Positions 10,944 to 24,801 are shown, counted from the stretch's first letter. The stretch is DNA of 27,035 bases from a virus (IMGVR_UViG_3300042991_000632:1-27035), one strand, 5' to 3'. A program made the numbers and translations. Notes: a model not told the origin generated them from the sequence alone.

Positions 10944-11453
10944 ATGGAACTTACAGACAAGAAGTTAATGGAAATCAGAAAAGATGTTATCACCTTTGTT
11001 AAATGGAAAATGGGTAATGACGTTGAGGCTGAAGATTTCGCACAAGACACCTTAATTAAGGTTATCACAAACATTGATGTTTACGATGAGAGCAAGAGTT
11101 TCCGTACATGGTACATCAGTATTGCCAACAACATGATTATTGATATGTATCGTAGGAACAAAGACATCAAAGAGTTTTCAATCTCTGACTATCTGAATGA
11201 CAACGGAACTGAAAAGATACAAATTGCTGACGCATCAGTTAATGCTGAAAATTCCGATACTCATAAGCAGATAAGGAAAGCAATCAGAAATCTCAAATTT
11301 GAATATCGTAAAGTTATCGTATTGCGTTTCATTCAGAATATGTCATGCAACGAGATTGCTGAATATTGCGATATGCCCTTAAACTCTGTTTTGTCAATGA
11401 TTGCAAGAGGTAAGAAGTTATTGCAGGAGCAGTTGCAAGGTCAGTTAGTTTAA
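10944..11453 (+). CDS. RNA polymerase sigma-70 factor, ECF subfamily (candidate early/middle phage sigma)
   Basis: Region 2 (EAEDFAQDTLIKV...SFRTWYISIANNMIIDMYR) and region 4 (RKVIVLRFIQNMSCNEIAEYCDMPLNSVLSMIARGK). Confidence 0.92.
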   Translation: MELTDKKLMEIRKDVITFVKWKMGNDVEAEDFAQDTLIKVITNIDVYDESKSFRTWYISIANNMIIDMYRRNKDIKEFSISDYLNDNGTEKIQIADASVNAENSDTHKQIRKAIRNLKFEYRKVIVLRFIQNMSCNEIAEYCDMPLNSVLSMIARGKKLLQEQLQGQLV

Positions 11454-11499
11454 TCCGGCTGACCTTTGGGCAATGTCCAAAAATATAATGTCCGGTAAA

Positions 11500-11525
11500 T
11501 GCAATATTTTTAAATAAAAAACGTA
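11500..11525 (+). promoter_or_regulatory. ECF-type promoter TGCAAT-N16-CGTA
   Basis: Exact match, upstream of 11554. Confidence 0.8.
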
Positions 11526-11553
11526 TATTAGTAGAAACCAAAACACAAACGAC

Positions 11554-11967
11554 ATGAAGGTATCAGATTACAGCGAATTGAAAAGTACATTAGGTCGCAC
11601 TCCCACAATGGACGAAGTGCGTGAGATGGAAGACAACAAACTCATGGAGATCAAGAAGTACGCCAACTTTTGTGGGTACACTGATGTCGATCCTTACGAG
11701 GTAGTAAGAACAATCTCTCCGATTTGCGTTGAAGTTCGTGCAATGTCCACTAAGCAGATTGAATTCCCGAAGCAGTTTTATCCGGGCGGTTTCGTTGGTC
11801 ATTTTGCTGACAATCGTGGCGGTCAGAAGTACGAATACACATCAAATCCCGATGCTCCGGTGTTTCGCATCCGGTGGAGCAGAAGTAACAGACATTGGCA
11901 GACCGCAAGTAAGATGAGGTTTGCAATGTCCGACAACCCCTACAAATTCTACGACTACAACTTTTAA
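11554..11967 (+). CDS. Hypothetical phage early protein
   Basis: 137-aa ORF between promoter and terminator. Confidence 0.8.
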   Translation: MKVSDYSELKSTLGRTPTMDEVREMEDNKLMEIKKYANFCGYTDVDPYEVVRTISPICVEVRAMSTKQIEFPKQFYPGGFVGHFADNRGGQKYEYTSNPDAPVFRIRWSRSNRHWQTASKMRFAMSDNPYKFYDYNF

Positions 11968-11971
11968 AAGA

Positions 11972-11997
11972 GAGAGGGTGAAATTCCCTCTCCCTTT
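11972..11997 (+). terminator. Intrinsic terminator
   Basis: GAGAGGG-tgaaatt-CCCTCTC followed by CCTTTT. Confidence 0.6.
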
Positions 11998-12023
11998 TGC
12001 AATATTTTTAAATAAAAAACGTA
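11998..12023 (+). promoter_or_regulatory. ECF-type promoter TGCAAT-N16-CGTA
   Basis: Exact match, upstream of 12052. Confidence 0.8.
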
Positions 12024-12051
12024 CTATATATATAACCAAAACACAAACGAC

Positions 12052-12315
12052 ATGGCAACAACAACAAGACCGCTTTACATGATTGCTCACGAAATCGAAG
12101 CAAATTGGAAGAGATCAATATCCGGCACTGATCTGTATTTCGGTGCAAAACCTTACCTCAGTGCAATGTCCACTTTGAATAGCATCAATGATAACTACGG
12201 CATGGACTCCGGCAGATCAATAGTGGCATACTTTCTTTCCAATGCAACAACGTGGCGTGGAGAAACTGCTAAGAGGGTTAAGAAGGAACTAAATGATATG
12301 CTGAAGGCACGATAG
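12052..12315 (+). CDS. Hypothetical phage early protein
   Basis: 87 aa, YFGAKPYLSAM..YGMDS..YFLSNATTWRGE; own promoter. Confidence 0.8.
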   Translation: MATTTRPLYMIAHEIEANWKRSISGTDLYFGAKPYLSAMSTLNSINDNYGMDSGRSIVAYFLSNATTWRGETAKRVKKELNDMLKAR

Positions 12316-12430
12316 GTGCTGATGGGAATAGTGACTATGCCGGAAGTATAGTAGACCACACGAGGGCAACTCAAACCGGATATTAAAAGTTAGCACTATA
12401 CCCCTGATGCCAAAATATAATGTCCGGCAA

Positions 12431-12456
12431 TGCAATATTCTTAAATAAAAAACGTA
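12431..12456 (+). promoter_or_regulatory. ECF-type promoter TGCAAT-N16-CGTA
   Basis: Exact match, upstream of 12484. Confidence 0.8.
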
Positions 12457-12483
12457 CTATATCTGTAACCAAACACACACAAC

Positions 12484-12651
12484 ATGACACCAAAAGAAAG
12501 ACGCAAAGAACAGAAGAGGCAGTACGAATATATCAAAGACATTCGTACAAGGATTCAGAAAGGTCTTACGACCACGTTTGCAGAACGCAATCAGATGCAC
12601 ATCTACGACAAGAAGATGGCTCAGAAACGTAAATCAATGTCCAACGCATAA
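12484..12651 (+). CDS. Small basic protein (55 aa)
   Basis: MTPKERRKEQKRQYEYIKDIRTRIQKG...; directly after promoter and ACACAC leader; below the track cutoff. Confidence 0.65.
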   Translation: MTPKERRKEQKRQYEYIKDIRTRIQKGLTTTFAERNQMHIYDKKMAQKRKSMSNA

Positions 12652-12663
12652 TACCAATGTACG

Positions 12664-12957
12664 ATGAAAACAATACAAGACTACGTTGACGAGATTAAGA
12701 AAGCAAGTGATGCCGATTGGCAGAAGCATGGCTACGACATGACCAAAGCACCGACCTATACCATAATGTCCGGGAGTAAGTTTCATAAGATTGTTGTTTC
12801 AACTTGGGGATCACAATCTGTGCATTGTTTTGTTGACCGGGAAAGCGGTGACATATACAAAGCAGCGACATGGAAAGCACCCGCAAAACACGTCCGGGGA
12901 AACATCAATGAGGATAGGAAACCTCTGTTGGGATGGGACTTTTATTGGCGGAGATAA
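12664..12957 (+). CDS. Hypothetical phage early protein
   Basis: 97 aa, SVHCFVDRESGDIYKAATWKAPAKHVRGNI. Confidence 0.8.
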   Translation: MKTIQDYVDEIKKASDADWQKHGYDMTKAPTYTIMSGSKFHKIVVSTWGSQSVHCFVDRESGDIYKAATWKAPAKHVRGNINEDRKPLLGWDFYWRR

Positions 12958-12982
12958 TGTACTAACTTAAAACTAATGTACG

Positions 12983-13141
12983 ATGGAACGCAAAGATTGG
13001 ATTGTTCGTTATTACGACAAGAAAGATAAATTAATCAGTTCGTATATCATTAAAGATAGGACTGAGCATGAAGCCGAGAATGAGGCAATGGGAGATATGA
13101 CTTATGAATGTGATGATTGGACGATGGTAGTAAAAAAATAA
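12983..13141 (+). CDS. Hypothetical protein (52 aa)
   Basis: MERKDWIVRYYDKKDKLISSYIIKDRTEHEAENEA...; fills gap. Confidence 0.65.
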   Translation: MERKDWIVRYYDKKDKLISSYIIKDRTEHEAENEAMGDMTYECDDWTMVVKK

Positions 13142-13149
13142 TGTCCGGG

Positions 13150-23615: not shown

Positions 23616-23707
23616 CGAAAAACCCAACCGAGAAATGAGGTAACACTTAATGTCATTCGGCTCTGGTTATACAGTGGGGTAGGGCACACCCCGTTGCTCC
23701 TGTATAG

Positions 23708-23760
23708 GAAACCCCGGACACTTTCATTAGTTTGATTGCACGTCTGGGGTTTCTTTTTTA
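23708..23760 (+). terminator. Intrinsic terminator closing the ncRNA unit
   Basis: GAAACCCCGGAC...GTCTGGGGTTTC plus T run. Confidence 0.65.
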
Positions 23761-23767
23761 AAAACAC

Positions 23768-23800
23768 TTGACAATTTAAAAGAAGTACTGTATCTTTACG
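23768..23800 (+). promoter_or_regulatory. Housekeeping-sigma-like promoter TTGACA-N17-TATCTT(TACG)
   Basis: Same architecture as 790-822. Confidence 0.5.
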
Positions 23801-23827
23801 GTGCTTTTTGTTTTTAGTGTTGTTCCG

Positions 23828-23875
23828 GTAACCAGTTGTATGTTTCTGACTGTTCATCAACTGGTTACTTTATTT
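23828..23875 (+). terminator. Hairpin plus T-rich tail
   Basis: GTAACCAGTTG/CAACTGGTTAC 11-bp stem then TTTATTT. Confidence 0.5.
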
Positions 23876-23884
23876 ATACCCGGC

Positions 23885-23910
23885 TGCAATATTTTCCCGA
23901 TTTTTACGTA
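23885..23910 (+). promoter_or_regulatory. ECF-type promoter TGCAAT-N16-CGTA
   Basis: Exact match, upstream of 23938. Confidence 0.8.
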
Positions 23911-23937
23911 TTATATATATAACAAATAATTACGACA

Positions 23938-24444
23938 ATGGGATACACACATTACTGGATAGGAAAAAGGAGCACGGATGAGAACTGGAACAAGTTCCGG
24001 GAAGCATGCGAGAAGTTATACCAGAATCTTCCTGAAAAGACAGATACTGCAGGTGGATTCTATAAAGACAGCAAACTGAACATAGGATCAGGAAGTGGAA
24101 AAGGCAAGCCAGTGTTTGATGGAGTAATGGTTGACTTCAACGGAAGAGGAAATGAACTTAGTAATGAAGGATTCAGGATTGTGAAACATGCCGGAGATTG
24201 GGATTTCTGCAAGACAGCCAGAAAACCGTATGATCTTCTGGTGGTTGCTGTCCTGATCGCTGCATGGCAGATTCTGGATTACAGGTTTGATTCTGACGGT
24301 TTCACTGATTACAAAGGTGAGAAGCATATCAATGACCTGATACCCGGCATGAACTTCTACAATGAAGTTATGAGACCAGATGTGCTCATAACAGAAGACA
24401 TGCTCTGGGAGCAGTGTAAAGAAAAGAATGAATTGGTTTCATAA
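23938..24444 (+). CDS. Hypothetical phage protein
   Basis: 168 aa; MGYTHYW...FNG...FCKTARKPYD. Confidence 0.8.
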   Translation: MGYTHYWIGKRSTDENWNKFREACEKLYQNLPEKTDTAGGFYKDSKLNIGSGSGKGKPVFDGVMVDFNGRGNELSNEGFRIVKHAGDWDFCKTARKPYDLLVVAVLIAAWQILDYRFDSDGFTDYKGEKHINDLIPGMNFYNEVMRPDVLITEDMLWEQCKEKNELVS

Positions 24445-24503
24445 AGATATTTCTGCCTCGATTCGAGAGGCAATTGTGTGTGGTTAATACGTTGGTTAGT
24501 ATG

Positions 24504-24539
24504 CCCTACAGAAGTTGTGACCCTGTAGGGTTTTTTTTT
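24504..24539 (+). terminator. Intrinsic terminator
   Basis: CCCTACAG...CTGTAGGG plus T9. Confidence 0.8.
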
Positions 24540-24546
24540 ACCCGGC

Positions 24547-24572
24547 TGCAATATTTCAGGAAGTTTTACGTA
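24547..24572 (+). promoter_or_regulatory. ECF-type promoter TGCAAT-N16-CGTA
   Basis: Exact match; followed by a non-coding element. Confidence 0.8.
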
Positions 24573-24584
24573 CTATATATGTAA

Positions 24585-24684
24585 CAGATTTTATTTAAGA
24601 ATTGTGTAATAGGAACATCACCTGAGACCGGGTAGACTCCAACTTACTTTATAGTCTGAATTTAGAATCATTCTAAACAACAGC
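24585..24684 (+). ncRNA. Putative structured small RNA/leader, copy 2
   Basis: Paralog of 18581-18681, at the same position relative to its promoter. Confidence 0.5.
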
Positions 24685-24775
24685 CAGAAATGAACAGTTT
24701 TTATTTAAAAACATACTGTATTTAAAGTTGATGATGTTTTTATTTAAAAAATAAATGAAATATATTTTGCAATAT

Positions 24776-24801
24776 TGCAATATTTGTGTACTTTTGACGT
24801 A
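24776..24801 (+). promoter_or_regulatory. ECF-type promoter TGCAAT-N16-CGTA
   Basis: Exact match; -35 overlaps the palindrome TTGCAATATTGCAA (24767-24780); upstream of the rIIA-like gene. Confidence 0.8.

Follow-up and report, generated by a model that had tools for sequence, protein, structure and literature searches.

The window analysed here (IMGVR_UViG_3300042991_000632:1-27035, the whole stretch of 27,035 nucleotides) makes up the first 27 kb of a virus contig of 148,025 bp, 45% complete by the CheckV estimate, and its source is a large uncultured phage of Bacteroidota. The sequencing runs listed with the phage sequence come from cave, sediment or biofilm samples and include no RNA run. 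At 10944-11453 it encodes a sigma factor of the extracytoplasmic function (ECF) type, and from 11500 onward one two-box motif, TGCAAT-N16-CGTA, recurs before one gene after another. An earlier note on this DNA had read the two together as a phage sigma directly followed by its own regulon of 20 promoters. Is the repeated motif a promoter, which sigma factor reads it, and what does its dense repetition do for the phage? We conclude that the sites are very probably ECF-type promoters, and that the 10944 sigma is their probable reader. The features concerned are the following, the promoters being predicted from sequence.

10898-10905, plus strand: host sigma-A type -7 element TATATTTG (TAnnTTTG), 38 nt before the sigma ATG
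10944-11453, plus strand: ECF-like sigma of 169 aa with regions 2 and 4 only (Pfam, TIGR02937, 5wuq), proposed reader of the motif
4542-5144, plus strand: second ECF-like sigma, 200 aa, with sigma-70 region 2 and region 4, behind TTGACA...TAGTTTTG
101416-102075 of the contig (G000), outside the window, minus strand: third ECF-like sigma, 219 aa, with a weak region 4
11500-11525, plus strand: promoter 1, of the class with spacer ATTTTTAAATAAAAAA, before ORF 11554-11967
11998-12023, plus strand: promoter 2, directly 3' of a terminator hairpin, before ORF 12052-12315
12431-12456, plus strand: promoter 3, before ORF 12484-12651
13150-13175, plus strand: promoter 4, before ORF 13202-13546
13639-13664, plus strand: promoter 5, before DUF932 gene 13693-14634
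14681-14706, plus strand: promoter 6, directly 3' of terminator 14650-14675, before ORF 14734-15003
15251-15276, plus strand: promoter 7, -35 box in the loop of an 11-bp hairpin (-18 kcal/mol), before ORF 15309-15647
16084-16109, plus strand: promoter 8, before ORF 16138-16368
16415-16440, plus strand: promoter 9, -35 box in the loop of terminator hairpin 16406-16431, then a T run, before ORF 16464-16811
17449-17474, plus strand: promoter 10, CGCAAT variant, before ORF 17505-17825
17845-17870, plus strand: promoter 11, -35 box in the loop of terminator hairpin 17836-17861, then a T run, before ORF 17903-18112
18543-18568, plus strand: promoter 12, -35 box in the loop of terminator hairpin 18535-18558, before a non-coding element of ~100 nt
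18688-18713, plus strand: promoter 13, before GP88-family gene 18746-19579
19607-19632, plus strand: promoter 14, -35 box in the loop of hairpin 19600-19621, before ORF 19670-20203
20699-20724, plus strand: promoter 15, CGCAAT variant, before ORF 20752-20955
22283-22308, plus strand: promoter 16, -35 box in the loop of hairpin 22275-22298, before ORF 22341-23336
23435-23460, plus strand: promoter 17, before a putative tRNA-like element
23885-23910, plus strand: promoter 18, before ORF 23938-24444
24547-24572, plus strand: promoter 19, 3' of terminator 24519-24532, before the second copy of the non-coding element
24776-24801, plus strand: promoter 20, before rIIA-like gene 24844-27165

A pattern search of the window finds 18 exact matches to TGCAAT-N16-CGTA, all on the plus strand between 11500 and 24801 (shuffled sequences gave a mean of 0.09 and a maximum of 1), and with one mismatch allowed the two CGCAAT sites, 17449 and 20699, come in as well; together they bear out the 20 plus-strand copies with a 16-nt spacer that had first been listed. 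The same one-mismatch search also returns 1876 and 2797, both inside open reading frames (ORFs), at a chance expectation of 2.06. Over the whole contig the spacer is 16 nt in 29 of 30 TGCAAT...CGTA pairs and 17 nt in the remaining one, with none at 13-15 or 18-19 nt, and the full conserved box, TGCAATAT-N14-CGTA(T/C)nAT, is longer than the TGCAAT/CGTA core. The first site begins 46 nt past the sigma stop codon (11453), and a scan with a position weight matrix (PWM) finds none upstream of 11500, both as originally described. A regulon limited to the 20 sites at 10944-24801 is too narrow, however; the contig-wide PWM scan, with one regular-expression match, gives 11 further sites at contig 27.2-79.9 kb, one of them before rIIB, for a total of 31. 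All 31 are oriented like the gene downstream, on either contig strand, and lie 19-44 nt from its ATG.

Within the window, where 20 units are packed into 13.3 kb, the distance from CGTA to ATG is 23-42 nt (median 28) at 17 of the 20 sites, and the other three lead into non-coding elements. A position typically 27-37 nt before a start codon or a non-coding RNA had been given earlier. Two of the three non-coding cases, 18543 and 24547, have no ORF behind them, and the third, 23435, which precedes the putative tRNA-like element, has the lowest PWM score (19 bits); ARAGORN found no tRNAs, and a search of Rfam returned nothing above threshold. Most genes that follow a TGCAAT site are small and have no known function, the recognisable ones being DUF932, GP88, rIIA and rIIB genes and one weak DenV-like match. 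The leaders 3' of the box are A/C-rich and lack a Shine-Dalgarno sequence, as is expected for Bacteroidota.

The two boxes follow the grammar of ECF promoters, for which Bacillus subtilis SigW offers the best comparison. The SigW -35 consensus reads T-36, G-35, A-34, A-33, A-32, C-31, then any base and three T residues (PMC6713349), its -10 box CGTA confers SigW selectivity, and a T-tract that follows the -35 box immediately is among the known elements of ECF promoters (PMC5758882). The phage box TGCAATATTT equals SigW TGAAACnTTT at eight of ten positions, the T-tract included; the T-G at -36/-35 and the A-A at -33/-32 are shared, whereas the phage has C for A at -34 and T for C at -31. The likeness to SigW TGAAAC-N16-CGTA that had been claimed thus holds for the 16-nt spacer and the CGTA box, and the T-tract is shared as well. 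In more general terms the sites have the xGxAAx -35 box, the CGT-bearing -10 box and the fixed short spacer of ECF promoters, with the final C of AAC changed to T. The fixed spacer, the fixed orientation and the narrow distance to the start codon, taken together, argue for a promoter rather than a mere repeat. Within Bacteroidota, ECF-class promoters with a CGT box at -10 have been mapped in Flavobacterium psychrophilum (motif SM6; PMC9723704). These promoters and the TGTAAC-N16-CGTATAA promoters of other Bacteroidota phages share the -10 box and the spacer with the sites described here; they differ in the -35 box, which is TGCAAT here, so that the phage box looks like a private variant and not like a copy of the host-type box.

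The 10944 protein matches Pfam Sigma70_r2 over residues 12-73 (1.3e-14) and Sigma70_r4_2 over residues 108-160 (1e-10), and with regions 2 and 4 only, without region 1.1 or 3, it has the architecture of an ECF (group 4) sigma; TIGR02937 gives it 88.8 bits, where the cut-off is 42.9. Among models of the equivalog type SigW fits best, and the SigW structure 5wuq in PDB is matched at 2e-19, although the cut-offs of the SigW equivalogs NF007223 and TIGR02948 are missed (99.1 versus 209 bits and 90.8 versus 243, respectively). By these scores the protein is SigW-like and not SigW, that is, not an orthologue. It differs from SigW also in having neither an anti-sigma partner nor autoregulation. The gene that follows is preceded by a promoter of its own and encodes no anti-sigma domain, and the divergent neighbour at 10032-10601 matches no family; an anti-sigma partner is a common, though not universal, ECF trait. 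Upstream of the sigma gene lies a TAnnTTTG box, and the sole TGCAAT...CGTA pair there has a 22-nt spacer. A scan of IMG/VR with the sigma protein gave no relative, a megablast search of 10900-20000 against deposited phages gave no match, and the scan of genome contigs for cellular relatives found only two proteins from Bacteroidota metagenome-assembled genomes, at 26-28% identity.

TAnnTTTG is the consensus of the Bacteroidota primary sigma (PMC9723704), and this box is kept 38-45 nt upstream of the sigma ATG in all relatives examined (L094, L115, L116, L104, L122 and L126); the host enzyme, without modification, should therefore suffice to express the sigma gene. Since its gene would need host sigma-A, the regulon would be delayed-early or middle and not part of the first wave of transcription. 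Thus the idea of an early system run by the 10944 sigma stands as regards the sigma, the best candidate reader, and is to be modified as regards the timing.

Two observations concern the region just upstream. TGCAAT without a properly spaced CGTA occurs ahead of the sigma's host-type promoter, once here (10853-10884, with the 22-nt gap) and as two tandem copies in L094 and L116; these misspaced copies could be a feedback site. The minus-strand gene at 10032-10601, which encodes 189 aa of no known family and diverges from the sigma gene, has its own TATCTTTG box and keeps its position in all sigma-bearing relatives (identity 91%, 41%, and 22% in the TGTAAC lineage); its product could be a partner or regulator of the sigma.

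Relatives, all of them independent metagenome contigs, tie the motif to the sigma gene. Six contigs (L094, L095-L102, L104, L115, L116 and L122) encode sigma orthologues of 54-67% identity; in these a TGCAAT-N16-CGTA site begins ~45-50 nt past the sigma stop codon, and further copies precede the small genes that come next, the sites numbering three in L094, six in L115, ten in L116, one in L104 and four, plus one TGTAAT variant, in L122. Seven short relative contigs all stop 77 nt past the sigma stop codon, within the repeat. The layout of sigma gene, promoter and small genes is the same in L123/124 and L126/127, whose sigmas are 39% identical and whose box is TGTAAC-N16-CGTATAA.

In the complex of SigW region 4 with DNA, R175 reads G-35, T171 the base at position -34, and K170 the G on the other strand that pairs with C-31 (PMC6713349). 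The residues aligned with these in the 10944 clade are R155, S151 and L150, so the equivalent of R175 is kept while T171 and K170 are replaced. Among five clade members and the 55 nearest other homologues (an exhaustive search), L or E stands at the K170 position only in the TGCAAT clade, and 50 of the 55 others have K or R there; at the R175 position 59 of the 60 have R and one has K, and this retention matches the invariant G-35. In other words, the clade without the lysine that reads the final C, which distinguishes it from the sigmas linked to TGTAAC, is the clade whose promoters carry T in place of that C. The TGCAAT sigma clade is monophyletic (100/100) and nested in the K-bearing group. 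A homologue with Q in place of K (P0017, on L128) has only host-type promoters around it and is uninformative here. The co-variation of motif and sigma regions proposed as a check in the earlier note is therefore present, a -35 base change running parallel to a change in the region 4 recognition helix across two motif states only. It is this co-variation, with the conserved adjacency and the host-type promoter before the sigma gene, that makes the 10944 sigma the best candidate reader.

Several points weigh against that assignment. The contig holds two other ECF-like sigmas, which makes three in all and not the two (10944 and 4542) first recognised, and the 4542 sigma is as SigW-like as that at 10944. 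The co-variation comprises two motif states, TGCAAT and TGTAAC, and one contact residue aligned to a distant structure; about half of the genome is missing from the contig; no separate motif could be assigned to the 4542 sigma in the 148 kb; and some of the breakpoints described below come from Logan contigs, which are prone to misbreak or misjoin at repeats. One may thus ask whether the motif is read by one of the other phage sigmas, at 4542-5144 (200 aa) or at contig 101416-102075 (219 aa). Both have regions 2 and 4, the 4542 sigma matches SigW at 2.6e-19, on a par with 10944, its gene also lies behind a host-type promoter, an orthologue is present in close relatives too, and a search of the 148 kb for an AAC-type two-box motif found none that recurs and could be its own. 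Its residues tell another story, however: R at both the K170 and R175 positions predicts an AAC-type -35 box and not TGCAAT, and the protein falls outside the group that holds 10944 and the TGTAAC-linked sigmas. Moreover, in its 20.6 kb of syntenic sequence L122 has only the 10944 sigma type and no 4542 homologue, yet it has the TGCAAT promoters. The third sigma, which has Y where SigW has R175, shows a weak region 4 and is encoded directly behind a primase-like ORF; it is a better fit to a late-type factor, perhaps for GTATTTATA. We therefore consider it quite unlikely that either reads the motif. Similarity to SigW was tried as a means of telling the phage sigmas apart and rejected, as 10944 and 4542 both match at ~1e-19.

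A host ECF sigma could be the reader instead, in which case the accessory genes would join a host stress regulon and the phage sigma would have another job; the mapped SM6 promoters of F. psychrophilum make this conceivable. TGCAAT, however, lacks the C of AAC that is read by the conserved K/R of ECF region 4, only the phage sigma clade has lost this K/R among its near relatives, and the motif accompanies the sigma gene in all relatives seen, so a host reader is unlikely. A search of 201 Bacteroidota genomes for TGCAAT-N16-CGTAT found no arrays; because the control, TGTAAC-N16-CGTAT, was not enriched in 61 genomes either, small regulons would escape such a search, and it is not used as evidence. 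A scan of IMG/VR for TGCAATATTT-N12-CGTAT gave 85 contigs with one match each, which is the chance level, and no arrays. That the repeats might not be promoters at all, and serve between genes as recombination, homing, protein-binding or terminator modules, is suggested by the six sites in terminator-like hairpins and by the breakpoints that relatives show at repeats. Fourteen of the 20 sites nevertheless lack a strong hairpin, all 20 have both boxes and the exact 16-nt spacer, the distance to the ATG and the gene-wise orientation are constant on both contig strands, and the boxes match an ECF -35 and -10, which leaves this explanation with very little probability indeed. Hairpin promoters of the N4 type, for a phage RNA polymerase, were also considered and rejected, the hairpin being present at only six of 20 sites and the two boxes at all of them.

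Returning to the promoters proposed for the 10944 sigma, many are joined to terminators. At six sites (15251, 16415, 17845, 18543, 19607 and 22283) TGCAATAT occupies the loop of a GC-rich hairpin of 7-11 bp (-13.6 to -19 kcal/mol), and the 3' arm of the hairpin and its T run fill the promoter spacer. Four more (11998, 14681, 13639 and 24547) stand directly behind a separate terminator, and some others keep one hairpin arm only. With terminators at or before the promoters, the units would be insulated and nearly monocistronic; the fused or adjacent terminators lend support to the cassette-like arrangement that had been supposed.

Comparison with relatives shows that these units come and go. L094 carries an additional gene at window 11997/11998, inserted precisely between the terminator and TGCAAT. 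In L116 a new unit of promoter and gene lies between 12982 and 13171, homology resuming at 13171, in the -10 box, and the L116 orthologue of gene 13202 has a promoter of the hairpin type, versus a hairpin-free one here. In L115, 12960-13608 is replaced by a promoter and a third copy of the non-coding element, and the breakpoint at 13609 lies ~30 nt upstream of a site. Contigs from other runs lack 18113-18528, ~20221-20699 (an endonuclease VII/HNH gene) and 20726-20958, directly after the -10 box, so that around promoter 15 the relatives join 20221/20224 to 20700 and 20725 to 20959/20961. The cassettes thus likely serve gene gain, loss and swap between relatives. As to the suggestion that the repeats themselves promote the shuffling, the breakpoints at 11997/11998, 13171, 20700 and 20725 fall at boxes and speak for it, whereas others are 70-170 nt off, and the sample is small and drawn in part from break-prone contigs.

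The non-coding element has some features of its own. Its two copies in the window lie at 18569-18687 and 24573-24775, and the third, 71% identical, is at L115 3228-3342, in a different position. At the start of the 18.5-kb copy is a relic, TGTAAC-N17-CGTT, similar to the promoters of the sister lineages.

The closest known parallel to these cassettes is the promoter early stem-loop (PeSL) elements of the T4-type phages RB49/phi1, PST and nt-1, in which the stem-loop can either overlap the -35 box or stand between the two boxes, and in which insertions and deletions end at the cassettes (Arbiol et al. 2010, PMC2839356; Comeau et al. 2014, PMC4122927). As in those phages, intergenic repeats combining a promoter with a stem-loop terminator, small and present in dozens of copies, stand before small, variable genes in a region of unknown functions; the gene gains, losses and exchanges that separate the relatives tend to lie at or close to the cassettes, and the phage carries T4-like genes as well (rIIA, rIIB, endonuclease VII and an SbcCD-like nuclease). 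The differences lie in host and reader. PeSL promoters match host sigma-70 and are read by the unmodified host enzyme, whereas the boxes here depart from the Bacteroidota TTTG / TAnnTTTG consensus, fit the ECF grammar and are most likely read by a phage sigma; the host group is Bacteroidota and the leaders have no Shine-Dalgarno sequence.

Phage sigma relays such as SPO1 gp28 and T4 gp55 are functionally akin to this system. The promoters of phages phiEco32 and 7-11 reportedly consist of essentially one extended -10-like box (tAATGTAtA). In these two phages, as proposed here, an early phage protein of the sigma-70 family (gp36 in phiEco32) retargets the host core polymerase (PMC8948821, PMC4331800, PMC12276001); their promoters serve middle and late genes, whereas those described here are strictly of the two-box ECF type and appear to serve pre-replicative accessory genes. 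Novel features are the TGCAAT variant and the recognition-helix change that matches it, the density of the sites, and the fusion of putatively sigma-dependent promoters with terminators into PeSL-like cassettes.

A course of events that would account for these observations is that the host primary sigma transcribes the 10944 gene from its TAnnTTTG promoter right after infection, and that the phage sigma, with host core polymerase, then fires ~30 or more near-identical promoters, 20 of them in the next 13 kb. Each would drive one or a few small accessory genes (DUF932, GP88, rIIA, rIIB and genes of unknown function) or a small RNA. Most units would end in an intrinsic terminator, the hairpin loop of which is in six cases the -35 box of the next unit, and the cassettes of 26-40 nt would double as recombination points in the manner of PeSLs. 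More tentatively, the phage may have derived a private, orthogonal pair of sigma and promoter from the TGTAAC/CGTA type that Bacteroidota hosts have in common with many of their phages, mainly by replacing K with L at the K170 position and, in every promoter, C-31 with T. Its pre-replicative accessory regulon would then be shielded against host ECF sigmas and co-infecting phages, and the fused cassettes would be portable shuffling units wherever the sigma is present. If so, this is a natural case in which a one-residue change in a sigma and a one-base change in its promoters make an insulated transcription channel, and the PeSL idea extends from coliphage cassettes read by host sigma to sigma-dependent cassettes in large Bacteroidota phages. 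It would also offer a compact and probably orthogonal set of sigma, promoter and terminator parts for Bacteroidota, where there are few genetic tools. The predicted specificity, L150 for T at -31, is directly testable with purified components.

The contig has other promoter classes too. Host-type promoters are present as TAnnTTTG boxes, frequently preceded by TTGACA; at the 4542 sigma gene the TAGTTTTG box (4530-4544) ends 4 nt before the ATG, and the mRNA of this gene may be leaderless. A second phage motif on the contig is GTATTTATA, and GTATTTAT(A) has ~28 intergenic copies at 10-40 nt before start codons, mostly ahead of genes in the 83-145 kb block, which holds nuclease, helicase and tail-fibre genes. 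Most of the GTATTTAT(A) copies precede minus-strand genes of these three kinds, and one stands before the gene at 5185 for a 1192-aa polyvalent protein. Copies of GTATTTAT in the window are at 437, 5158, 15732 and 20689 (minus strand), and the contig range is 76-145 kb. With no -35 box visible, GTATTTAT(A) is a candidate for a promoter of the T4 late type, which the third sigma may read.

The block to the left of the sigma gene (1-10900) has no TGCAAT sites, its boxes being TTGACA...TAnnTTTG or GTATTTAT. The G+C content is 0.29-0.35 over 1-10900 and 0.37-0.41 over 10900-27035, shifting near the sigma gene; the exception is the 20-21 kb bin (0.31), which holds the endonuclease gene. This minus-strand gene of endonuclease VII/HNH type (20259-20693), missing from the related contigs that join 20221/20224 to 20700, has its own GTATTTAT box and is likely a mobile homing endonuclease.

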